Source of the DNA: an uncultured virus (IMG/VR IMGVR_UViG_3300025849_000011)
Lineage: Duplodnaviria > Heunggongvirae > Uroviricota > Caudoviricetes
Direction: 5' to 3' (one strand)
Virus record (IMG/VR): IMGVR_UViG_3300025849_000011
Length of the DNA stretch: 64,000 nt
The notes below the pieces were generated by a model. The model was not told where the DNA came from. It ran no database searches and was given only the letters and a program-made list of their open reading frames with translations. Position numbers and translations under genes: made by a program. Positions 32,726-44,519 of the stretch are shown here, piece after piece. Position 1 is the first letter of the stretch. Each line of letters begins with the position of its first letter.

Positions 32726-33131
32726 AGGTTTCTAAGGCTAGTTTAAACTCATCCTCATAATATTTTCTAACATCTGGAACCATTCCTTTCATTTTTAAAG
32801 GAAATTCTATATTTTTCAATATTTGATCATAAGTATCAATATCTAAATGATATTGAATAAAATGTGGATCGTTTTCCGCTAGTAGATATTTATCATTTAA
32901 TAATTCAAAGAAATTTTCATCAAAATCTTGAGATAACCAATATGCATAACATATAGCAACAAAATATGATTTTGCTGGTCTAATAGTTTCATCAACATAT
33001 TCATTAAAGTGTAGTAAAGCATCCCTTACAATATTTTCTTCACTCCATGTCACATCCATTTTATTCAAATCATCTGAATACTCTCTATTAAGTAAGTGAT
33101 AAACTTGGGACGCTGTTCTCCATTTTCTCAT
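32721..33131 (-). CDS. Hypothetical protein, last gene of the cassette (likely start MRKWRT at 33131)
   Basis: ORF track 32721-33167; the internal ATG shortens the overlap with the upstream gene. Confidence 0.65.
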   Translation of the reverse strand: MRKWRTASQVYHLLNREYSDDLNKMDVTWSEENIVRDALLHFNEYVDETIRPAKSYFVAICYAYWLSQDFDENFFELLNDKYLLAENDPHFIQYHLDIDTYDQILKNIEFPLKMKGMVPDVRKYYEDEFKLALETL

Positions 33132-34017
33132 ACCAATCCAATAGCCCTTTATATCCGTTACATCCATTATCTAAATCCTTGACATATCGGTAATGTTCTG
33201 TTAAACAATTACCGAAATATTTGCATGAAGCGCAAATCGGACTTATCATTTCTTCTTTTTCTTTTTCTGCCCAATCCAAGTAAGATTGAAAAGAATCCAA
33301 CTCTTTAAAGTATTCCCTATCGTGAACATCAAACTCCAATACTCCAAACTTGCCGTTAGGAGTAATGTAAACATGATCATCCGAAAATGCATTGTATAAT
33401 CCACTAAAAGACTCCTCTATCTTGTTTGCATTTACAAATTGAAAATCCATTTGATTTTCTAATTCCATCCACTGAATAACAAACTTTTCAAAATCTAAAT
33501 GCGTCACAGTAAATGCATTTGCTTGATTAATAGAATATGGTTTAATCTCTACTGATTTAACAGCACCACACATATTCAATAATTTTATCATTTCATTTAC
33601 ATTCATCTTTAAAACTTGCGGTGATGCAAGAATAAGAACAGCAATCGGTACTGGACTCATCATCATATTCTGAAATACCAAATTTGATTTCTCTCTTGCT
33701 TCAAAATCGTAAGATACTGATAGATAAACATCGTCATCAAAGAAACCATCATGCATCATAGAATAGTTTGTGTTGATATTTATTTTTTTACCATAATACT
33801 TTTTAATTGTATTTTTAACATCATAAAAATAATTTTTCTTCATAGCACCAATTTCACCACCATATAGATCAACATGCTCTATATCTGGAATTTGTGAAAG
33901 TAATTCATCAAGTCTCTCAATTGAAATTTTTTTCTGATCGCCTAATTGTTCTGAAGTAAGATAACAAAAATCACAGCGAAAATTACAAAAATAAGATGGA
34001 TTTACAGATACAATCAT
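33088..34017 (-). CDS. Radical SAM protein with C-terminal Cys cluster (309 aa)
   Basis: CNFRCDFC (CxxxCxxC), YGGE, C-terminal CASCKYFGNC...C. Confidence 0.9.
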   Translation of the reverse strand: MIVSVNPSYFCNFRCDFCYLTSEQLGDQKKISIERLDELLSQIPDIEHVDLYGGEIGAMKKNYFYDVKNTIKKYYGKKININTNYSMMHDGFFDDDVYLSVSYDFEAREKSNLVFQNMMMSPVPIAVLILASPQVLKMNVNEMIKLLNMCGAVKSVEIKPYSINQANAFTVTHLDFEKFVIQWMELENQMDFQFVNANKIEESFSGLYNAFSDDHVYITPNGKFGVLEFDVHDREYFKELDSFQSYLDWAEKEKEEMISPICASCKYFGNCLTEHYRYVKDLDNGCNGYKGLLDWYEKMENSVPSLSLT

Positions 34018-35048
34018 GCATATTCTCTTACATATTCAGTAACTTTAGTATCCATTCTATTTAAAGAGATTATATCTTTAGCCATAGATTTCATATGTTG
34101 ACAGTGATCTTCAACCATGTTATGTTGTTTCAAATCTTTAATTGTTTTACGGCATCCATTACAAATTTCAAACATAGGACAGGTAAAACACGAATTTTTA
34201 AGACTCATTAAACTCAAATCATTACTGAGAGGTGTCTCAAAACCCCCATTCATTTCATATTCAAAATCTATTGGTTTGTCAAAATCATCACCGAAAGAAC
34301 CACAAGAATAGTAATCACCTTCTGGTTGAATATTACGAATGCCACTATCACAGTTTCTGGACTGAGGACATATGGTTGGTTTTTTTCTTAACCTATTTAA
34401 CATTTGTTGAGTATTATGTTCCCAATCACTAAGTCCTGCTTTCCAAATTTGAATATATCTCTCATAAATTTTTGATAATCTATATGGTGCTGACTGAGAA
34501 CCAGATGCCATAGCATAATTTACCTTACAAACAACATTCATCTTCTTAGCAAGTTGTACAGTCTGTATTACAGTATCTTCATTTTCATCCACAATTACCG
34601 CAATAAATGATGGTCTATAGCCTACATGCTCAAGCATCGCATCAGAACATTTCCAAAAATCTTCTTCTGTAAATTCACTGTAATCTCCCTTGAGCCTACC
34701 ACCGCCATATTGAAATGAAGTCCCAACACCAATTCTATGATGATTAAAGAGTTCTGCCCATTTTTTTGGTTTCATTAAAAAAGGATACAAATTGGTTGTA
34801 AGGGATATTGTCGCTGGCATATCATGTTTATCTAAAAACTCTATTAATTTCCAATAGTAGTTTGGCCTCATCATTAAAGGATCACCACCATTTACGATGA
34901 TAGTTTGCGTTTCAGGAAATCTTTTAAGAAATTTGAATATCTTATTCAAATCAAGTACAGCAGTGTTATCCTCTTGAGTAATTTTAGAGGAAGAACAAAA
35001 TGAACATTTAAAATTGCATAATTCTGTTGGTTTGATAATTAAGTCCAT
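34014..35048 (-). CDS. Radical SAM/SPASM protein (344 aa)
   Basis: IIKPTELCNFKCSFC, NGGDPL, CPQSRNC...YSCG...CFTCPMFEICNGC...C. Confidence 0.92.
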   Translation of the reverse strand: MDLIIKPTELCNFKCSFCSSSKITQEDNTAVLDLNKIFKFLKRFPETQTIIVNGGDPLMMRPNYYWKLIEFLDKHDMPATISLTTNLYPFLMKPKKWAELFNHHRIGVGTSFQYGGGRLKGDYSEFTEEDFWKCSDAMLEHVGYRPSFIAVIVDENEDTVIQTVQLAKKMNVVCKVNYAMASGSQSAPYRLSKIYERYIQIWKAGLSDWEHNTQQMLNRLRKKPTICPQSRNCDSGIRNIQPEGDYYSCGSFGDDFDKPIDFEYEMNGGFETPLSNDLSLMSLKNSCFTCPMFEICNGCRKTIKDLKQHNMVEDHCQHMKSMAKDIISLNRMDTKVTEYVREYA

Positions 35049-35623
35049 GGAGAATTCTTTATATTAAAACCAAAATTCATTGTGATTCTTTGCACATTGG
35101 GTTTTCTAAAATCCTCAACTCTATGTTGAAAATTTAAATCTTGACTACCTAATATTAAATCATATTTTTTTGGTAAGTGATAACAAGTGACACGTTTATT
35201 TTGTCTCATATTTCGGAACATTATTTCACCACCGACTCCTTGTTCCATATCAGTGAAATATAGTAAAAAGAAAACATTTGCACCTTCTCTTAAATCATTA
35301 TGCCAAGAACTAGAACCATCACATGCTCCATTCCAAATATATGAATATATTAATTTTTTGCTCTCATAACAATCGTCATACTTTGATAAGTATGTATCAT
35401 ACAATAAATCAGCAGTTTTCTTTATTTTGTTTCGCATACCATTCAAATGATAATTCCAACAAATGCTATAACTTTTACAATCATCACCATCATTTAACCA
35501 TTTTATTTTTGGAATATTATCACTACTCATATTTAACCACTTTAGTTTTGGCATAGTATCATTGATATGAATAAACATATTTTTATTATTTTCCATAAGA
35601 TATCCTTGGTCTTTCATTTCCAT
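35039..35623 (-). CDS. 2OG-Fe(II) oxygenase, paralog B
   Basis: WHND...GGEI...HRVE...RIT (HxD...H triad plus 2OG-binding Arg); alternative start at 35617. Confidence 0.8.
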   Translation of the reverse strand: MEMKDQGYLMENNKNMFIHINDTMPKLKWLNMSSDNIPKIKWLNDGDDCKSYSICWNYHLNGMRNKIKKTADLLYDTYLSKYDDCYESKKLIYSYIWNGACDGSSSWHNDLREGANVFFLLYFTDMEQGVGGEIMFRNMRQNKRVTCYHLPKKYDLILGSQDLNFQHRVEDFRKPNVQRITMNFGFNIKNSPWT

Positions 35624-36168
35624 GGAGATTCCTTTACTTTAAATCTAAAAAGCATTGTTATTCTTTCTTGCTTCAATTCTCTTGTATGCTCAACTCTATG
35701 CTGAAACTTTAAATCATCACCTACACTTCCCATTACTATATCATATTTTTTAGGTAGATGAAAAGCAGTTATTCTTTTATTTTGTTTCATATTTCTGTAC
35801 ATTATCTCACCACCATTATTCGGTTCTGAGTCTGTAAAATACAAATTAAATTGTAAGTTGCCACCTTCAGTATCATGATGCCACTCACACGAACCAGTGT
35901 CCGTCCCATTCCACATAGTATAATAATCCAAGTGTTTTTCGGTTTCCCACGGCAAGTAGGTTTCCCAAAGTAAATCGGCAGTTTTTAGCATCTTACTTTT
36001 CATGGAGTGGAAATAATAATTCCACGCGACGCTTTGCCATCTGTCAGATTTATCAGAATTACTTCTCTTTAAGTATAACCATTTTAATTTTGGTAATGTA
36101 TCTTTTATATGAATAAACATATCAGGATTATTTTCAATAAAACATCCAGAATTTTTATCAATATTCAT
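35614..36168 (-). CDS. 2OG-Fe(II) oxygenase, paralog A (likely start MNIDKNSG)
   Basis: WHHD...GGEI...HRVE...RIT; ATG 36168 lies just after the upstream stop. Confidence 0.8.
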   Translation of the reverse strand: MNIDKNSGCFIENNPDMFIHIKDTLPKLKWLYLKRSNSDKSDRWQSVAWNYYFHSMKSKMLKTADLLWETYLPWETEKHLDYYTMWNGTDTGSCEWHHDTEGGNLQFNLYFTDSEPNNGGEIMYRNMKQNKRITAFHLPKKYDIVMGSVGDDLKFQHRVEHTRELKQERITMLFRFKVKESPWK

Positions 36169-36169
36169 T

Positions 36170-36700
36170 TTATTCCCAGCCCACACTTACAGTCATTCTT
36201 GGTTTAGAGCCAAAATAAGGTCTAATACAATGTACCATAGAACTATTAAAAACTACTAACCTACCCACTTTTGGTTGTATTCTAGTCTTATTTTTTGGAT
36301 ATTGAAAAATATCAAGAGAATCATAAATATCCAACTCACCACCTTGCCAACCATTATTATCTATATCTATAAAAAATAATGTAATGATTTTAGACTCTGT
36401 TCCATCATGATGTGGTTCCCAAATCATATTTTCATTATTATCTTTTTCATACTTGACAATTTTTATCAAATGTGATATAGCAATTTTTTTTACATTTGAA
36501 TCTTTCACCATCGCAATAGTTTTTGCTTTATTCAGATTTGGAAAGTCATCCATATTATCTTTAATATTTATCGCCATATTTTTTTGCATGTTAAATCTTG
36601 GCAAATCCTCAATAGAGGGATTGGCAAAAGAAAACTTGCTTTGTATTCTTTCAAGTTCTTTTTTATTCAAAAAATCATCATAAATTTCTACAGAATTCAT
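36170..36700 (-). CDS. 2OG-Fe(II) oxygenase, prolyl-4-hydroxylase-like (176 aa)
   Basis: PHHD...WQGGEL...PKVGRLVVF...HCIRP...RMTV. Confidence 0.85.
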   Translation of the reverse strand: MNSVEIYDDFLNKKELERIQSKFSFANPSIEDLPRFNMQKNMAINIKDNMDDFPNLNKAKTIAMVKDSNVKKIAISHLIKIVKYEKDNNENMIWEPHHDGTESKIITLFFIDIDNNGWQGGELDIYDSLDIFQYPKNKTRIQPKVGRLVVFNSSMVHCIRPYFGSKPRMTVSVGWE

Positions 36701-38345
36701 CTAATCTTTCCTTTATCATTTCTTCATTTTTATTTAATAATATTTTCATTTCATTGACAATATCTTTACCTTTAAAGCGTCCCACATCAAACTTATCTAT
36801 GCTATGTGGATTTTTATCATAAAATATATTTCTTATTAATTCTTTGTAAACAAAAAACATAGGAATATCATTCAATATATTCCACAATTCTTTTGCTACC
36901 TCGGAAACATTTTCATATGTAGTATATTCACTTATAAAACTTAAACCTATATGTGGTGTAAACAAATTCATTATAAACATTTCTAGATATTCTTCAAACG
37001 TATATGAAAAACACTCAATTATAGTATCATATTCATATGCAACATCCCCATATATTGGATTTACTTCAACATCATCCCATTTTCCGCTATAGTTACCATC
37101 AAATTGTGTTAATACTTTTGAAGTTTTTATTTTATACTTTTCTTGATATTCTTTACTGGCAGTTTCAGTCGCTGGTAAAACCATGTAAGGATATCTAGTG
37201 TCTGCCCATACGTCAAGACCTTTCCATTCTTCCCAATCTTTTCCTTCATTATACCCAACTCTATAGTATACTTTAAATTCCTCGTAAAAATCTTTTAGTG
37301 TAGATCCCGGCATCGCTAAAATTAATTCTAAGTCTAACCATAATTCTTTTTCTTTAAAATTATTCCATTTATTAGTTAAATGATCCACCAACTCATAAGT
37401 TTCCTCAACATTAAGGTCTCTCCTGTTCGCAATTTTTCTCGCTTCTGGTGATATTGATTGTAAACTGATACTGATAACTTGACGAGTAATATCATGCTCA
37501 ATCATAAAATCAAGCATTTCTTTTTTCTGTTCCAATTTTAAAGTTTTTAATACCGATAGATTTTCACCAATTTGAACCCCATTATCCACCATGTGCATCA
37601 TCATTTCTCTATCACGTTCTTTAAACATTCCTGTATTAGCATCACACAAATCAATATGTACACCTTTGAACCGCCCTATAAATTCCATTTCATCCTTTAT
37701 CACAGCCATAGGTTTTTTTAGAACTTTTGTTCCAGTACCGCCACCCCACTCACAATAAGAACACTTAAATGGGCATCCTCTAGTACTTTCATATATCAAT
37801 GTTATTCGCTCATATAAGTCTATATTTTTAATGAAATGCTTATATTCTTTGGTAAAATAATCTTCACATCTCTTATATACATTCGTATGTCCAAATGGAA
37901 GAGGAATTTTTAAAGAACTACCCAAATAAAATGGAATCTTTTTCTTATCAACAGAATCCTCTAAATACATATCAAGAAAGTATTGAACGAATATTTCTCC
38001 TGGAGCAAGAGGGTCTGCAACATAGTCATAATCTTTTATTATATCAGGGTCTTGTTGAGGACCACCCATAACTACTATGGTATCTGAGTCAAGGCCATTT
38101 CGTATCCTTTGGTTAATTTTATAATTCCAAACATAATTGGTAAAAAATACAATAGAACACCCTTTAACATTATCCAAACAATCTTGTATTGTAACTTCAT
38201 TCCATTTGAATATTGGCTCCACCCAAGTAACTTTTTCTGGATATTTACCGTAATCTTCATAAAAACATTTAAAAAGCATCCAATGATAATTAAATTCGGC
38301 CCTTGAAGGTATTCCTGTTGGATTTATATAACCTACTTTAATCAC
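36678..38345 (-). CDS. Cobalamin-binding-type (class B-like) radical SAM protein (555 aa)
   Basis: N-terminal FTNYVWN...VVMGGPQ (B12-binding-like), ESTRGCPFKCSYCEWG, DANTG, SLQS, ELILAMPG. Confidence 0.8.
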   Translation of the reverse strand: MIKVGYINPTGIPSRAEFNYHWMLFKCFYEDYGKYPEKVTWVEPIFKWNEVTIQDCLDNVKGCSIVFFTNYVWNYKINQRIRNGLDSDTIVVMGGPQQDPDIIKDYDYVADPLAPGEIFVQYFLDMYLEDSVDKKKIPFYLGSSLKIPLPFGHTNVYKRCEDYFTKEYKHFIKNIDLYERITLIYESTRGCPFKCSYCEWGGGTGTKVLKKPMAVIKDEMEFIGRFKGVHIDLCDANTGMFKERDREMMMHMVDNGVQIGENLSVLKTLKLEQKKEMLDFMIEHDITRQVISISLQSISPEARKIANRRDLNVEETYELVDHLTNKWNNFKEKELWLDLELILAMPGSTLKDFYEEFKVYYRVGYNEGKDWEEWKGLDVWADTRYPYMVLPATETASKEYQEKYKIKTSKVLTQFDGNYSGKWDDVEVNPIYGDVAYEYDTIIECFSYTFEEYLEMFIMNLFTPHIGLSFISEYTTYENVSEVAKELWNILNDIPMFFVYKELIRNIFYDKNPHSIDKFDVGRFKGKDIVNEMKILLNKNEEMIKERLDEFCRNL

Positions 38346-38976
38346 CTTTATAGAACTCCATATTCATAAATTGTATCTTTGTGAACCCTTTTAAAACCTT
38401 AGACGTATATGGAGTTTCCATTATAGCACTGTCTGGATGGGTAGACATTTTTTTCATTTGAGTGTATAGTGTTTTGGCTGTAGGAACGTAAATAGGTCTA
38501 TTCTCAATTTCAGTTTTGCAAAATTTCACCATGATTTTATAAAAGTCTATTTCTTGCCTTCTGGTTAAGCAATCTCTATAAATTCCATTTATTTGAATAT
38601 TTGACATTATTGTATAATTTTTAGTTTTCTCTGTACCAATCCACCCTAACTCATAATCATTATTCACTGCTGTTTTGGGTGACCCAGTAAATTGAGTAGT
38701 GTAATCTTCTATCATAGATTTACTATTAACTTCAGATAATAAATTACTTGATAATGGAACACTAAAAACGTACACTTCACTACTCAAAAAATTATCTAAA
38801 AAATGAATACATGGGGGTAATTCTATATCAACTGAATAATCAAATACTGTACGGCACACATTATAGTCTATATCAATTTCTTTTATTGGAGTAATTAATC
38901 TTTTCGCTCTTGTTGGAAACCTATTTATAAAAGATTGACTTATTGGAGATTTATCACCATTTCCATAAAAAAACAT
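38338..38976 (-). CDS. Hypothetical protein (212 aa)
   Basis: ORF tightly packed within the cassette; no recognisable motif. Confidence 0.65.
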   Translation of the reverse strand: MFFYGNGDKSPISQSFINRFPTRAKRLITPIKEIDIDYNVCRTVFDYSVDIELPPCIHFLDNFLSSEVYVFSVPLSSNLLSEVNSKSMIEDYTTQFTGSPKTAVNNDYELGWIGTEKTKNYTIMSNIQINGIYRDCLTRRQEIDFYKIMVKFCKTEIENRPIYVPTAKTLYTQMKKMSTHPDSAIMETPYTSKVLKGFTKIQFMNMEFYKGD

Positions 38977-38977
38977 C

Positions 38978-40018
38978 TCATCTTAATCCTTGATTTTCAA
39001 TATATCTATGTGTCATCTTATAAACACATTCATCAAAAATTTCCTCTGCATATTTGTAATCGTGTGCCATGAAACACCCAAGAGTACATCTATGGAAATA
39101 TTCACAAGTAGAGCAATTGTACTTCTCAAGAAATGCTTTCTCAATAGGCTTATTATTGGCCTTTTGTATATCAGTTTTATACATTGCTTTATCTCTTGGC
39201 TCTTGAACAAGATTTCCACACAAACACATAGTCCCATCCTCAAGAACTAATTTAGATGATCTGCATGAAACAACATTACGTTCATTTTCTATCCAAGAAC
39301 GAATAGGTTCAATCTTAGGATAATTATCTATAAAATGTGTAAAAATATCGTAATGTTCTTTATCTGTCGGCATACTTCTTTCTGCTTGACAATCGGGCAT
39401 GTAGTAATCAGCATAAACCTTAACACCTTTATGATATAGATCATGCATAAAATCTTTTGGATCAGTAAGCCAATATCTTATATTTGATTTAGTTAGAAGA
39501 ACACCTATACCTTCTAAATCATCCCAAAAATCATATACATTCTCTTTGAAAATTTCTAAGTTTGGTTTGTTAAATCTACCTCTAGGATCATATGAGGTTA
39601 CAAGTTTTGTAGCACATCCCATATCCCTACACGCTTTTAATATTTCTCTCACATAATCCTTTTTACTAATAACAAGATTAGTTACCCAATTAATACTCAC
39701 TTCATCAAAGTTATATTTTTTTCCTAAGTTTACTATTCCTTGAGCAAGAGAAATGTAGTCATTCTTCAATTTTTCATCAAAAATTTCATCGGCAAATATT
39801 TCGCCACCCATAATATTTAAAACAACACGTTTTCTCATTTCTTTCTCAAAGAATTTTTCTATTGATTCTAATTTATCTAAAACTGTATCAATACCCACAA
39901 TGTTGTCATGGTCTTGCCAGCAAAATGGGCAAGATAGATTACAAAACTCAAACAAATGAATTGTATATTCTTGCTGCTTATCTCTTTTATCTCTTAAAAT
40001 AAAATCTACTAAATCCAA
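38978..40018 (-). CDS. Radical SAM protein with SPASM/twitch-like C-terminus (346 aa, TTG start)
   Basis: CNLSCPFC, MGGE, C...CLCG...CSTCEYFHRCTLGC...C. Confidence 0.9.
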   Translation of the reverse strand: MDLVDFILRDKRDKQQEYTIHLFEFCNLSCPFCWQDHDNIVGIDTVLDKLESIEKFFEKEMRKRVVLNIMGGEIFADEIFDEKLKNDYISLAQGIVNLGKKYNFDEVSINWVTNLVISKKDYVREILKACRDMGCATKLVTSYDPRGRFNKPNLEIFKENVYDFWDDLEGIGVLLTKSNIRYWLTDPKDFMHDLYHKGVKVYADYYMPDCQAERSMPTDKEHYDIFTHFIDNYPKIEPIRSWIENERNVVSCRSSKLVLEDGTMCLCGNLVQEPRDKAMYKTDIQKANNKPIEKAFLEKYNCSTCEYFHRCTLGCFMAHDYKYAEEIFDECVYKMTHRYIENQGLR

Positions 40019-40672
40019 TCAAACTTCTCCTGCACCAACTCCCCAAGTTAATAGGAAAAGTGGATTTTTTTCATAGGACCAATAATCAAATAAACCCTTT
40101 CCATTAAACATATATTCATTAAAATATTTAGAATAATAGGTCAAGTTTTTTTCATCTAATCCATTGTAGTAATAATAAAAATCTTCATGTTTTAATAAAG
40201 ATACAAAATTAATACCTTTTATATCATCAGTATCATCTTCTTCATGTGATATTACCCAATCTTTCATCTCATCATCTTGGATAATATACATATTATAAAG
40301 TGTCAATGAATCTAACTTTTTAATCCAAGTATCAATGACTTCTTTGTTATCATCAATGAAATCTTGATAGCAACCTAAACATTCTAAAGATAGATTTTTT
40401 TTCACCAAAAGAACCTCAATAATAAATTCTTCTAAAACTTTAATATTTAATATTTGTGGAAACTGAAGATATATTTTTGCAAGGTTCTCTAAATCATTTC
40501 CTTCAACTTTAATATCACAAGGTAACTCTAAGTTGCTTAAATAAACGAGTAATTTCTCACCTTGTAACTCACTATTTTCATAATCAATAATAAAATTAAT
40601 ACTATCATCAGAAAAATATTTTTGTAAATCATCAATACCTAGTGGTGCAGTCACTGTAACATAATTATTCAT
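40019..40672 (-). CDS. Acidic hypothetical protein (217 aa), possible accessory factor
   Basis: ORF between the candidate substrate and a radical SAM gene; no catalytic motif recognised. Confidence 0.7.
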   Translation of the reverse strand: MNNYVTVTAPLGIDDLQKYFSDDSINFIIDYENSELQGEKLLVYLSNLELPCDIKVEGNDLENLAKIYLQFPQILNIKVLEEFIIEVLLVKKNLSLECLGCYQDFIDDNKEVIDTWIKKLDSLTLYNMYIIQDDEMKDWVISHEEDDTDDIKGINFVSLLKHEDFYYYYNGLDEKNLTYYSKYFNEYMFNGKGLFDYWSYEKNPLFLLTWGVGAGEV

Positions 40673-40679
40673 AATAAAA

Positions 40680-41507
40680 TTATCTCCTATTTCTTGATGA
40701 ATGGCAATTAGAGTGGCAATTAGAATGGCATACAGATTCAGTATATCCTGCTATATTTCCATCTATAGCAACAGTTTTCCATGCCTCATATAGATTATTG
40801 AATAATGTTTCCATATCACCATCATCAATTAAATCTCCAGCGACTATCATTGAATGATCAACATCAGAAGAATCAATGGTGAAACTATGTCTAGGAGTTA
40901 AAACGCCCACTCCACTAACACTTATTGCTTTACCTATAACAGCACCACTTCGTAAACTAACTGCATATTTTTGTGTCGCTGATGTACAAGCCGATTGAGC
41001 GTCTGAACGTAAGGTCTCTGCTTCTTGTTTTGTGGAAGGTTTTCCACCAATACCATATGAATTCCAATTTGTAAAAAACTCTGAGATAAATCCACCAAAA
41101 GTAACACCAGCCCCAGCAGATACTTCGTTGTCTAAAGCATCTCTCCATTCACAAGCAAAGTTTTTTTCCTTTTCTGCATTTTCGGTAGATGCCGTATTGC
41201 GTGACGGTATTGGTATATTTCCACCTGGAATACCAGTTACAGTTCTTGTGGCAGTAAATTTTCTAACTCTAGTATATTGGTTAATATCCTTTAATAGAAC
41301 AGCAAAAATATTTGATGCTGTTATTGGCCCATCCAACAAATCAGGATTTGTTGTCACACCAGTTGTATTTCCATGAAAATAACTTGCTACTGATGCAAAT
41401 GGTAGATTATCATCACCAAACACAATAGCATCATTAATTTTATCAGTCACAAACTGTCTGTATTTTGTAATTACAGGGTTTTCTGTAATAGGGTCTGATA
41501 TTGCCAT
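40680..41507 (-). CDS. Candidate substrate/precursor protein with C-terminal CHSNCHSNCHSSRNRR (275 aa)
   Basis: Strong AGGAG SD; Thr/Gly/Ser/Ala-rich body like virion proteins; Cys-His repeat tail encoded by a 12-nt repeat. Confidence 0.75.
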   Translation of the reverse strand: MAISDPITENPVITKYRQFVTDKINDAIVFGDDNLPFASVASYFHGNTTGVTTNPDLLDGPITASNIFAVLLKDINQYTRVRKFTATRTVTGIPGGNIPIPSRNTASTENAEKEKNFACEWRDALDNEVSAGAGVTFGGFISEFFTNWNSYGIGGKPSTKQEAETLRSDAQSACTSATQKYAVSLRSGAVIGKAISVSGVGVLTPRHSFTIDSSDVDHSMIVAGDLIDDGDMETLFNNLYEAWKTVAIDGNIAGYTESVCHSNCHSNCHSSRNRR

Positions 41508-41517
41508 TCTTTATCTC

Positions 41518-42537
41518 CTAGACATTCTTTGCCAATTCCATCATTAAACTTTTAGGTGCGCCACACACATCACCTTCCCATCCTAATTGGTGACAATCAC
41601 CACCACAATATTTTGCAACAGGACAAGAAAGGCAATTGGGGTTTCTCATTTTTTCTTCAATAATAGTTCGTATTCTTCTAGGACTATTTATAAGAGTTTT
41701 AATAGAATCATCCAAAGTTCCGAATTGAAATTCTGGTGCTGAATTCGGACAACCACTTATTGTACCATCTCCATTTATTGTAAATAATTTTGTTTCACAA
41801 TCTCTACAAAAAGTGCCACACGTAGTAAGAGTTTTCTCAAACTTAGCATATACATTTTCAAGAAAGTCATTTTCAAACCAATCTCGCGCACCATATTTTT
41901 CACTTTGTTGATGCATTTTCAAAAAATAAGCATCTAATTCTTTATTAGATGGAAATATCTCTGATGCTTCTCTAGCATTACCATTATTAGTTAATCTCTC
42001 TAAGGATACTTCTTGAACCCCTAATCTTCTACACCATCTCAATAATACAATAGGGTCTTTTTCTAAAGTATCTTTAGTAAGACTAATAAACAAACGTATA
42101 GTTACACCATCTGCTAAAAGAGACTTGACGTTTTTATGCCATAAGTTATATTGTCTTTGATTATCAAATCTTATCTTACGGTCCCATGAAGTTCCTAACC
42201 TATTCCTAAGTGGGCCTTTTATAAATTCTCTATGCTGATCTTTTAATTTATATACTAAATTGGTTGTGGCTCCCCAACTCATATTATCCCAAAGACCATC
42301 ACAAGCATCATACACTTTTCTCATTTGCCCTACAGGTACAAGAAATGGTTCGCCACCATGAAACTCTAAATGAATACCATCATCCTTCGCAGGTTTTTCT
42401 TCACGAAATCTATGTATCCAATCAACTATCTTATCAGTATTCCAATAAATTTTAGCACCGTTGCTACCAGAGGTAAAACAGTGCTTACAGTTTAATTGAC
42501 AAGTTTCTGTGGTTTTAAGATATACTGACCAAAACAC
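41518..42537 (-). CDS. Radical SAM/SPASM protein (339 aa, GTG start)
   Basis: YLKTTETCQLNCKHC, FHGGEP, CGTFCRDC...GCP...CLSCPVAKYCGGDC...C. Confidence 0.92.
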   Translation of the reverse strand: MFWSVYLKTTETCQLNCKHCFTSGSNGAKIYWNTDKIVDWIHRFREEKPAKDDGIHLEFHGGEPFLVPVGQMRKVYDACDGLWDNMSWGATTNLVYKLKDQHREFIKGPLRNRLGTSWDRKIRFDNQRQYNLWHKNVKSLLADGVTIRLFISLTKDTLEKDPIVLLRWCRRLGVQEVSLERLTNNGNAREASEIFPSNKELDAYFLKMHQQSEKYGARDWFENDFLENVYAKFEKTLTTCGTFCRDCETKLFTINGDGTISGCPNSAPEFQFGTLDDSIKTLINSPRRIRTIIEEKMRNPNCLSCPVAKYCGGDCHQLGWEGDVCGAPKSLMMELAKNV

Positions 42538-43033
42538 TATTCATTTTATCCTCTATAAATTTTTCTAAGCCAAAACTCAAAGTAAGTGCTTCATGTTCAT
42601 TAAATGCTTGGTGAGGGGTATTCGCAGGAATATGTAGTGTTGCACCTTCCTTCAAAGTAAATACTGGTTCACCACCCATAGTATGACCTTCCATTGCTAT
42701 CGTTTTCATTCCTTCACAACAATATATAACGACATTATCTGGATCAGTATGTTTTTTGAATGAATGAGCATTTTTTTCAGCATAAAATAAATGACATGTT
42801 ATTGGGCCATTATGATCATACATATCTTCTAGTTCTAAACAATAAGAAAAAATCTCCGAGTTATATGCTTCCATTCTTTCAATTTTTATTGAATTTGTAT
42901 TTTTATTTGCAAGAGTATCCGCAAAATTTTTCATTAGATGTTCTCTGCCATTTTCATCTATTGCATAAACCATATTTTGTTCATACGCAAGATCACTCGC
43001 AATTATTTTTAAGAATTGACTCTTAGTAAGCAT
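42515..43033 (-). CDS. JmjC/cupin-type Fe(II)/2OG hydroxylase (172 aa)
   Basis: SFKKHTD...VIYCCEGMK...LHIPANTPHQA...LSFG (HxD...H), Cupin_4/YcfD-like pattern. Confidence 0.8.
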   Translation of the reverse strand: MLTKSQFLKIIASDLAYEQNMVYAIDENGREHLMKNFADTLANKNTNSIKIERMEAYNSEIFSYCLELEDMYDHNGPITCHLFYAEKNAHSFKKHTDPDNVVIYCCEGMKTIAMEGHTMGGEPVFTLKEGATLHIPANTPHQAFNEHEALTLSFGLEKFIEDKMNSVLVSIS

Positions 43034-43096: not shown

Positions 43097-44299
43097 TTAG
43101 AGTTTAAGGACACACTCAATCATTTTTTCACCCTCAAAATCATTACTTTCAAGAGCGAGACCTACTAATTCTGCACCATTAAACTCTGAACTAGCAACAC
43201 CATCACGCCAAGTATATACTGCCTCACCTTTTCTAATTTGACCATTTACTCTTACGGGAACCCTACCTTTAAGTGCAAGTGCTTGTCCTTCTGCTTCTGC
43301 ATTCATAAGAAATGCTGGCTCTGCTGAAACGACTCCAATTGGAATACCAGAAGTGGTACATCTTGTAGTTTCACCAGTTGGCCCAAAATTTACCATCATA
43401 ACAGTGCCTATTGGATAATCTTCATCTGTGGTATATTTTTCCGCAAGGTCAGCAAAATTAGCAGATGTAGCATTACCATGAAAAGTTGTTGCGTACATAT
43501 TTGCGTATTTAAACGATGAACTACCCACACTGTAAGAGTTATCTGTGTCTGGAACAATATGCCCACCGTGATTTATTTGACCATTAAATGTTGATGTAAC
43601 AGAAAGAGCGGAAGTCCCAACAGTAACCGTATTGTAAAAAGTACTAGTTCCATTATATACTCTTGTACCAGTGTATGATGTGGAAACATTATTTCTTACA
43701 AGAGATGGGTCCATTGCTTCTAATGGTATTGTAGTACCATCAGTCACTATTTTACTAGCAGGAATATCAGGTATTCTTCCTATTAGAAAAGTTCCCCTAT
43801 TAATTTTACTAGTATGTAAAGATGGAATACGATCACTATCAAATTGCCCAGCAGTGGTTTGATTTGCAGATAGATATGGTAATCTAGCAGTTGCTAATGT
43901 TCCAGTTGTTATAACCCCAGCATCTATTGCTGGTATTAATGATGGATTAATAGTTCCAGTTGTTAATTTTCCAGCATCTAAATTAGGAATATCGTTTGCC
44001 GTGAGTGGATTACATGTGAATGTAAATACCCCACCACCAATACCTGCTGAATCTGTATAAGATAAACTTGAATATGTACCAGACCCACCAGTTGATAATG
44101 CTAATGCAGTTCTTGCTAATCCTTGCACTTCACCATTAACAGCAAATTTACTTTCAATTGAATTTACTGCACCGACAATACTTCCACTATCAGTTGTATT
44201 TAAATCATCTAAATCACCTATATAAGTTGCAGTAAGGTTTGTTTTCATTCTCCAAGCATTTACTGAATTACTGAGATCAACATTTTCTAATCTAGCCAT
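43097..44299 (-). CDS. Tail fibre protein with C-terminal peptidase G2/IMC-like autocleavage domain (likely start MARLENV)
   Basis: IPxLDAxKxTTG repeats; ADLAEKY...GTV...IGVVS.EPAFLMN...ALKGRVPV motif. Confidence 0.75.
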   Translation of the reverse strand: MARLENVDLSNSVNAWRMKTNLTATYIGDLDDLNTTDSGSIVGAVNSIESKFAVNGEVQGLARTALALSTGGSGTYSSLSYTDSAGIGGGVFTFTCNPLTANDIPNLDAGKLTTGTINPSLIPAIDAGVITTGTLATARLPYLSANQTTAGQFDSDRIPSLHTSKINRGTFLIGRIPDIPASKIVTDGTTIPLEAMDPSLVRNNVSTSYTGTRVYNGTSTFYNTVTVGTSALSVTSTFNGQINHGGHIVPDTDNSYSVGSSSFKYANMYATTFHGNATSANFADLAEKYTTDEDYPIGTVMMVNFGPTGETTRCTTSGIPIGVVSAEPAFLMNAEAEGQALALKGRVPVRVNGQIRKGEAVYTWRDGVASSEFNGAELVGLALESNDFEGEKMIECVLKL

Positions 44300-44519
44300 T
44301 AGTGTCACCTAACTTTCTGGAAATTTCTACAAGCAGATTTTTCATATCCGCTACTTCTGATTTTAATACTTGAAATTCTTCTTTTTCTTCTCGCATTTTT
44401 TTCTTTCTTGCCTTCGCTTTTTCAATTTCTACAAGATCACTATTAATTATAGCACCAGATTCTAAATCTTTGACATAATTTTTTTCACCTTGAATTTTAG
44501 AAAATAACATATTAATCAC
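44292..44519 (-). CDS. Small coiled-coil hypothetical protein (75 aa)
   Basis: KDLESGAIIN...LKSEVADMKNLL; overlaps both neighbours in operon style. Confidence 0.7.
   Translation of the reverse strand: MINMLFSKIQGEKNYVKDLESGAIINSDLVEIEKAKARKKKMREEKEEFQVLKSEVADMKNLLVEISRKLGDTNG

Follow-up and report, generated by a model that had tools for sequence, protein, structure and literature searches.

A conserved Cys-His tail at the C-terminus of a phage particle protein family encoded beside radical SAM enzymes

Maturation by radical S-adenosylmethionine (radical SAM, rSAM) enzymes is known for small peptides and for a few cellular proteins. The sulfatase motif that serves the anaerobic sulfatase-maturating enzyme (anSME) as substrate is C/S-x-P/A-x-R, and QhpD, an enzyme of the rSAM/SPASM type, makes Cys thioethers inside the protein subunit QhpC. 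Three-residue cyclophanes (triceptides) are the products of other rSAM/SPASM enzymes, e.g., XyeB, FxsB and GrrM, and the His-acting HaaB and HtkB (PMC11499958). In the bacterial HXS antiphage system the folded effector HxsA, which carries His-Xaa-Ser repeats, is matured by the rSAM proteins HxsB and HxsC plus HxsD, and a +8 Da modification maps to an S-H-R-S-S unit of HxsA (Nat Commun 2026, PMC13128918). Here we describe a gene of an uncultured virus (Caudoviricetes; IMG/VR record IMGVR_UViG_3300025849_000011), of which a stretch of 64,000 nucleotides, the window, was analysed. The gene is located at 40680..41507 on the minus strand and its product ends in a tail of Cys-His units (CH tail). 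In the literature searched there was no description of this tail or of an rSAM modification of a virion or phage structural protein. We found that the CH-tail proteins, which have no family name so far, form a large group of particle proteins, invariant in their tail and obligately paired with radical SAM enzymes.

The 3′ end of the gene, an open reading frame (ORF) of 275 aa, codes for E-S-V-C-H-S-N-C-H-S-N-C-H-S-S-R-N-R-R followed by the stop codon. At the DNA level the tail consists of three imperfect 12-nt units, TGCCATTCTAAT, TGCCACTCTAAT and TGCCATTCATCA, and then AGA AAT AGG AGA TAA. The initial annotation of the window had described three C-H-S-x units with a basic terminus on an otherwise Cys-poor protein, directly downstream of an rSAM/SPASM gene. 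The tail was confirmed in the minus-strand ORF, and calling the carrier (259 aa without the tail) Cys-poor is fair, as three of the five cysteines lie in the tail and only C119 and C174 outside of it. The position of the gene also agrees with the annotation: a gap of 10 nt separates it from the upstream gene rSAM_A, whose product contains a full SPASM domain (TIGR04085, residues 247-317, 35.1 bits at a cut-off of 27). The protein and its parts are arranged as follows.

40680..41507, minus strand: CH-tail protein, 275 aa, 29.7 kDa; alpha/beta core domain (residues 1-99 plus 193-260), helical hairpin, tail
40683..40730, minus strand: C-terminal tail, residues 260-275 (stop codon at 40680-40682)
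40932..41210, minus strand: hypervariable inserted helical hairpin, residues ~100-192, placed by identity profile, model and alignment

Neither Pfam nor NCBIfam holds a family for the window protein, and the family members compared with both at E ≤ 10 did not reveal a meaningful family either. A word-indexed search yielded 11 homologues with 26-78% identity, in all of which the tail is invariant, as it is throughout the set of 12 first homologues (31-78% identity). In a profile search over 1.84 billion representatives, 465 clusters (50% identity) passed E ≤ 1e-3, of which 165 also passed E ≤ 1e-10. The proteins range from 125 to 430 aa with a typical length of ~190 aa, and only a short N-terminal helix region, a small core and the tail are common to all of them.

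For inspection of the tail we took 160 members, namely the best 150 from the profile search, the first homologues and the window protein. The pattern (C-H-x-x)x2-C-H-x-[ST]-R-x-R-R fits at the very C-terminus of 140 of them, and a further 14 deviate solely by Ala or Asn preceding the Arg or by one added residue. Two members are without the middle Cys, one has Tyr for the last His, one has Gly for the first Arg, and two have divergent or truncated ends. Where the middle Cys is lost in P0071 and P0089 (C-H-S-N-H-x-N-T-C-H), the outer C-H dyads and the basic end are kept. Homologues lacking the motif had been named beforehand as a possible refutation; instead, the motif proved to be conserved, with three C-H dyads retained in 156 of the 160 members (whole-protein profile).

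The consensus of the family tail reads [VI]-C-H-[SA]-S-C-H-x-[SN]-C-H-[GSN]-S-R-G-R-R-COOH. Position 4 of the unit is nearly always Ser or Asn across the family, so that the tail can also be read as three His-x-Ser/Asn units, each after a Cys. Among the 140 strict members Ser or Asn occupies the third position of H-x-S/N 138 times in unit 1 and 135 times in unit 2; for unit 3 the pattern used gives Ser throughout (140 of 140). No Cys beyond the tail is present in 89 of the strict members. The tail codons of 89 distinct genes vary synonymously (TGT/TGC, CAT/CAC, AGA/CGN, TCN/AGY), which argues for selection on the peptide and not on the DNA. Judging from these genes, among which the 12-nt DNA repeat of the window is not conserved, the repeat is incidental. 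Both a chance or low-complexity origin of the tail and a function of the 12-nt repeat at the DNA level are excluded by the conservation together with the synonymous codon variation.

The linkage to rSAM genes was examined in both directions. A degenerate DNA pattern of the tail was found at no fewer than 123 loci (≥123) in viral contigs; 80 loci were fetched and 77 remained after three same-contig duplicates had been dropped. In all 77 an ORF of the rSAM family is situated within 4 kb (77/77), and thus the motif is not one that occurs mostly without rSAM neighbours, the other objection raised in advance. Because these loci had been chosen by their tail, a reverse test was run with the best 80 of 388 relatives of rSAM_A, retrieved by rSAM motifs alone. 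A tail ORF accompanied 75 of these 80 relatives (63 strict, 12 with Ala or Asn before the Arg), and 60 of the 63 strict tail ORFs are located at most 60 nt from the rSAM gene. The five relatives without a tail ORF are truncated by the end of their contig, with no more than 282 nt of sequence downstream of the rSAM gene or an end inside it.

In the window the tail gene is part of a tightly packed co-directional block on the minus strand, the module, which lies between the fibre gene TF403 and further fibre genes; only 7 nt separate the tail gene from p20767. The features of the module and its borders are these.

43097..44308, minus strand: TF403, tail-fibre protein of 403 aa, encoded directly next to the module on its upstream side (matches to the tail-fibre families phrog_19602 and phrog_25848)
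42515..43033, minus strand: cupin/JmjC-type Fe(II) oxygenase, 172 aa (Cupin_2, JmjC_2)
41518..42537, minus strand: rSAM_A, radical SAM/SPASM enzyme, 339 aa, candidate tail maturase (SPASM match, phrog_1802)
40019..40672, minus strand: p20767, accessory protein, 217 aa (phrog_20767)
38978..40018, minus strand: rSAM_B, second rSAM enzyme, 346 aa, bearing a Cys cluster motif at its C-terminus and retained in the module from phage to phage
33088..38976, minus strand: lineage-specific extension of the module, conserved in the close relatives L002-L005

The upstream neighbour of the tail gene is an rSAM gene in 56 of the 77 loci, and the downstream neighbour is p20767 in 51 and an rSAM gene in 14. 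Counted over the whole locus, p20767 is present in 70, the remaining seven being cut by contig ends, and is the most constant partner of the tail gene. A protein of ~370 aa (u370) is encoded in 62 loci, a fibre gene in 54 and the cupin in 50. The arrangement that dominates is fibre, cupin, rSAM_A, tail protein, p20767, u370 and rSAM_B.

A second architecture was also observed. It comprises, in this order, a large fibre gene (up to ~1200 aa), two tandem tail proteins of ~125-140 aa, a different rSAM of ~400 aa, u367 and a relative of p20767, and is without cupin and without rSAM_A (loci L009, L031, L038, L039, L043, L048, L058, L063, L066, L069, L070, L076, L079, L081 and L082). Another gene order, with an rSAM_B-like gene upstream, was seen for a 434-aa member with four C-H units (L028:2747-4051).

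Searches against cultured phages with the window protein and with P0011 (tblastn) and with the 12-kb region (megablast) gave no match. Relatives of rSAM_A with 38-50% identity are present in 15 jumbo-phage records, from Agrobacterium, Sinorhizobium, Ralstonia, Burkholderia and Pseudomonas phages. By way of rSAM_A two cultured tail homologues were reached, gp170 of Agrobacterium phage Atu_ph07 (296 aa) and ORF068 of Ralstonia phage RSL2 (186 aa). Both phages show the gene order cupin, rSAM_A, tail protein, p20767 and rSAM_B, and their recognisable conservation with the window is limited to the tail and the enzymes. ORF068 corresponds in full length to phrog_35144 (E 4e-128), which is annotated ‘unknown function’. 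Other family members reach this profile of 186 positions through the tail alone, and the window protein likewise gives a weak, tail-only match (residues 217-275, E 9.8e-4).

Purified virions of Atu_ph07 contain gp170, which is listed with 31.89 kDa, 8 unique peptides and 35% coverage (PMC6102473, Supplementary Table S5); the mass computed from the translated gene is identical to the listed one. The protein was recovered from gel fragments 1-9 with a peak in fragment 1, i.e., the top of the lane. The 117-kDa sheath has its maximum in fragment 2 and the 43.5-kDa capsid protein in fragment 6, and a mass of 30-34 kDa normally corresponds to fragments 7-8 (PMC6102473). The published list of virion proteins includes the fibre gp176 and does not include gp168, 169, 171 and 172, i.e., the enzymes and p20767 (PMC6102473). 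According to these tables the Atu_ph07 homologue is a particle protein that after boiling in SDS migrates mostly at high mass, and the enzymes stay out of the particle.

The fold of the window protein was predicted with AlphaFold2. With 12 sequences the model was mediocre (predicted local distance difference test, pLDDT, 70.5), and with 150 sequences it was confident (pLDDT 90.0, predicted template modelling score, pTM, 0.87). In the model, residues 1-99 and 193-260 form an alpha/beta core into which a long helical hairpin (100-192, helices H105-130, H139-148 and H160-186) is inserted. The alignment shows that the hairpin is missing from the ~190-aa forms of the family (189-aa forms). The tail has a pLDDT of only ~55 and is flexible in the model. 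No known fold was found for the tail protein with the full-length models, the core not having been searched alone: Foldseek against the PDB gave no match at E ≤ 1e-3 for either of the two models, and the best Z among 48,161 chains compared by VIA-align was 5.4, nearly all rows being limited to the hairpin 100-192. The BFVD search returned uncharacterised family members alone, the Atu_ph07 protein included, and the family profile against PDB sequences gave noise only.

Variation is concentrated in the hairpin, where the identity per block of 10 residues is 0.21-0.65 versus ≥0.9 at both ends of the protein. In the loci L001-L005 the enzymes are 94-99% identical to those of the window, the tail protein 51-76% and the fibre 73-90%. 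From the sequences, this variation of hairpin and fibre would be the pattern expected of exposed, host-facing parts. The fibre proteins upstream of the module (TF403, L009-L088) have a similar extreme C-terminus with a hydrophobic-Gly-Ala-Leu-acidic stretch and a beta-like V/I-K-V/L end. In close relatives, these C-terminally similar proteins co-vary with the tail protein, and the enzymes are nearly constant.

The CX3CX2C motif of rSAM_A is located at residues 13-20. As the protein begins directly with this motif, it has no N-terminal peptide-recognition (RRE) domain. Its best full-length solved relative is anSME 4K36 (residues 12-318 versus 13-333, E 4e-8, profile). A complex prediction of rSAM_A, the tail protein, SAM and three 4Fe-4S clusters scored 0.02 and 0.00 at a mark of 0.32, which speaks neither for nor against binding. 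The iron triad of the cupin, H95-x-D97...H141, is invariant in 47 of 47 distinct homologues; together with the JmjC_2 match this would be compatible with a hydroxylation of side chains. For p20767 there was no match among PDB sequences in a profile search and no usable Atlas match, and u370 gave noise only in a profile search against PDB sequences; both are without recognisable relatives in these searches.

The extension of the module encodes a 212-aa protein, a B12-binding rSAM, three proteins resembling 2-oxoglutarate (2OG)-Fe(II) oxygenases, rSAM_C (SPASM-type) and rSAM_D. The B12-binding rSAM matches the KedN5-like C-methyltransferase family with 83 bits, under the cut-off, and the three 2OG-oxygenase-like proteins are paralogues. 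This lineage thus has five rSAM genes within 9.5 kb of its structural region.

The window stems from a marine T4-like myovirus and covers its structural region. PHROG matches place genes for the baseplate hub, wedge and tube cap at 49.8-62.7 kb and those for tail fibres at 28.9-32.7 and 43.1-44.3 kb, and a giant protein with DUF4815 (phrog_358) is encoded at 44.5-48.8 kb. Two giant ORFs of 2202 and 5746 aa (4238-28087, minus strand) take up more than one third of the window. By the baseplate wedge protein the nearest cultured phages, all of them distant, are Phage C48C1 (39%), Methylophilales phage Melnitz (35%) and Pelagibacter phage HTVC008M (33%).

What is established is the gene with its conservation, its genomic linkage in both directions, the model of the fold and the presence of a homologue in virions; the tail as substrate, the acting enzyme and the chemistry are what we infer from them. 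An rSAM gene and p20767 are the only genes that always adjoin the family members. On the simplest reading the tail serves as an rSAM substrate, and we consider it somewhat more probable than the contrary that the adjacent rSAM enzymes modify the tail of a fibre-associated virion protein. The 275-aa protein would then be part of the phage particle, as a structural component associated with the fibre. Its invariant tail, three Cys-His-x-Ser/Asn units with Arg-x-Arg-Arg-COOH behind them, would be a site of post-translational modification, and the modification would be installed by the phage's own rSAM_A, probably also by rSAM_B. The obligate accessory protein p20767 probably assists as an adaptor or chaperone, and the JmjC-type oxygenase probably contributes in many lineages. 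The enzymes would act inside the infected cell and remain unpackaged, and the modified protein would be packaged.

Most likely, such a modification would cross-link or rigidify the tail. Candidates are a C-C bridge from His to Ser/Asn (of the three-residue cyclophane or the Hxs type), a Cys thioether, and the conversion of Cys to formylglycine at the last C-H-x-S-R unit. This would give the protein, whose exposed hairpin varies with the host, a chemically robust end that may bind metal or form covalent links. The proposal of the initial annotation, a modified tag on a folded protein, is partly supported: it fits the confident model (pLDDT 90) and the Atu_ph07 virion proteomics, and the modification itself is the part that we infer.

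Several points weigh against this explanation. The published Atu_ph07 proteomics gives no mass of a C-terminal peptide (PMC6102473). The loading buffer of that gel, as described, lists no reductant (PMC6102473), and the high-mass species of gp170 may therefore be disulfide-linked. Moreover, the presence in virions is that of a distant homologue, aligned over the last 53 residues (BLASTP, 36% identical). With its scores far under the cut-off of every curated maturase family, the chemistry of rSAM_A is not readable from homology. The true substrate could also be the fibre, whose gene is a further constant neighbour. Finally, with three Cys and three His the tail holds classic metal ligands, for which no enzyme is needed.

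An unmodified tail could accordingly act as a metal or disulfide clasp (three Cys and three His per chain), which holds an oligomer together or is loaded with metal at the fibre-associated tip. The neighbouring rSAM enzymes would in this case act on the fibre, on another residue of the tail protein or on a small molecule. His-lined iron or zinc sites exist in phage fibres and spikes. The initial annotation had likewise named a metal-binding site as an alternative, one built by the enzymes. The motif is rich in ligands with a spacing of four residues, and the helical propensity of the model (H265-274) would put the Cys on one face. The behaviour of the Atu_ph07 homologue, found mostly in the top gel fragment with a buffer without listed reductant, would fit as well. 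However, a clasp leaves unexplained why tail gene and rSAM gene are linked in both directions, why position 4 is restricted to Ser/Asn and why the last unit reads S-R-x-R-R, and a strongly basic end beside a cation site would be unusual. We hold the clasp, the foremost competing reading, to be unlikely, if worth keeping in mind.

Far less probable is a classical precursor of a ribosomally synthesised and post-translationally modified peptide (RiPP) with a very long leader, the tail being released as a small modified peptide (antibiotic, signal or metallophore). The rSAM/SPASM enzymes and the C-terminal position of the motif, like that of a core peptide, would suit such a precursor. However, the body of the protein is a confidently folded, conserved domain in a structural module, its variable hairpin evolves like an exposed structural part, and the Atu_ph07 homologue is listed among the virion proteins with peptides covering 35% of it. 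Besides, no protease or exporter was recognised in the module by Pfam, NCBIfam and PHROG-type scans of its proteins. The chance that the two overlapping C-x-x-x-C-H words of the tail are variant haem-c sites carrying covalent haem or another tetrapyrrole is negligible: C-x3-C-H can bind haem, and there are weak rSAM matches, far under cut-off, to the haem-modifying families NirJ1 and AhbC, but these matches are generic, genes for cytochrome c maturation are missing from the module, the assembly of virion proteins takes place in the cytoplasm, and the conserved Ser/Asn and the basic end would stay unexplained.

The tail is not confined to phages. In a prokaryote genome collection its DNA pattern was found at 32 loci, all of them in metagenome-assembled genomes (MAGs), 20 labelled Bdellovibrionota. 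By the ORF rule used, a tail ORF is present in 29 of the 32, and most have adjoining relatives of rSAM and p20767. Two loci labelled Bdellovibrionota were inspected, each over 40 kb; their contigs measure 1.29 Mb and 382 kb, and the modules lie at ~299-314 kb (G002:C1) and ~252-266 kb (G003:C7). Both modules are situated among housekeeping genes (serine dehydratase, electron transfer flavoprotein, acyl-CoA dehydrogenase, YchF, PBP1, catalase-peroxidase), and a fibre gene with Peptidase_S74 lies ~6 kb and ~1 kb, respectively, from the tail gene. A prophage origin of the two loci is unsupported, the flanks within 20 kb carrying housekeeping genes. Going by gene content, the module looks like a chromosomal island of predatory bacteria, which suggests that these bacteria may use it with fibres of their own.

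The module is thus widespread: marine T4-like phages have it, as do jumbo phages of Agrobacterium, Ralstonia, Burkholderia, Sinorhizobium and Pseudomonas, and Bdellovibrionota-labelled MAG chromosomes. It lies in the host-recognition region, and in its variation the carrier protein resembles a host-range determinant. A modified tail would be new protein chemistry that is directly testable with cultured phages, and it would link the biology of the phage particle to the recently described HXS defence. It would also explain the many radical SAM ‘cassettes’ that a pelagimyophage survey reported from the host-recognition cluster and left unexplained (PMC7029224).

A wider claim is put forward tentatively, as it is rather more apt to fail than to hold: that phages, and predatory Bdellovibrionota with this module next to S74-type fibre genes, employ radical SAM enzymes of their own to install an undescribed cross-link or reactive group in the universal (Cys-His-x-Ser)x3 tail of a fibre-associated particle protein. 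If so, assembly or function of the host-recognition apparatus would depend on the modified end, and this would be the first enzymatic radical SAM modification of a virion structural protein. It would furthermore be the chemical counterpart of the His-x-Ser effector in the bacterial HXS defence against phage DNA entry.

Among the known systems, the CXXX-repeat rSAM target system (target TIGR04114, maturase TIGR04115, and TIGR04116) resembles the locus in having a Cys at every fourth residue beside an rSAM maturase. rSAM_A scores 37.9 bits with TIGR04115 (cut-off 350), over residues 4-66 only. In the nearest genome record (G001) there was no match to TIGR04116 and none to TIGR04114, whose 18-position model (cut-off 20 bits) may be lost by the HMMER filters. 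The 150 members matched 64 families, no family matching more than three members, and neither TIGR04114 nor HxsA is among the 25 families listed. In a neighbouring Atlas cluster (score 0.76, 194 members, mostly viral) 25% carry PF27846 of Pfam 38.1 (rSAM target, Cxxx repeat), which is a lead only. With QhpD and QhpC the locus would share a SPASM enzyme that cross-links several Cys of a protein staying in a larger assembly. It differs in that rSAM_A reaches 21.6 bits with TIGR03906 at a cut-off of 453 and the tail is without Asp or Glu acceptors.

The enzyme rSAM_A has the same rSAM plus SPASM architecture without RRE as anSME and a similar size, and anSME acts on whole proteins. The last unit of the tail, C-H-x-[S/A/N]-R, shares with the sulfatase motif the Cys at position 1 and the Arg at position 5. 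However, rSAM_A scores 38.8 bits with the anSME model TIGR03942 (cut-off 349), and the sulfatase motif is not present, the third position of the tail unit being G/S/N with Pro not among the six commonest residues and Ala found there in the last unit of a few variant tails only (e.g., P0135 and P0154). The first two tail units also lack the Arg, and the body of the substrate is unrelated to sulfatases. For three-residue cyclophanes, His-x-Ser/Asn fits the rule of an aromatic residue, any residue and a residue with a beta-carbon, and SPASM enzymes adjoin. In contrast, the substrate here is a virion protein of 125-430 aa and the invariant Cys of its tail is without counterpart; the models for XyeB, FxsB, GrrM/OscB, YhhB and AmcB give rSAM_A 18-31 bits at cut-offs of 310-450.

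By analogy, the bacterial HXS antiphage system would be the closest relative in kind, although no model tested indicates membership in it: rSAM_A scores 33.6 bits with HxsB (TIGR03978, cut-off 370), rSAM_C 31.7 bits with HxsC (TIGR03977, cut-off 267.9), and HxsA gave no match at E ≤ 10 in 6 family members. The tandem His-Xaa-Ser units typical of HXS are present as the three H-x-S/N units of the tail. In both cases a folded protein, and not a short peptide, bears such units in a basic context and is accompanied by two rSAM enzymes and an accessory protein, and the S-H-R-S-S unit described for HxsA resembles the C-H-x-S-R/C units. Unlike HxsA, the proteins described here have an invariant Cys before each His and carry their repeats at the extreme C-terminus, ending in R-x-R-R, and they belong to a phage particle, whereas HxsA is described as a bacterial defence effector of the periplasm.

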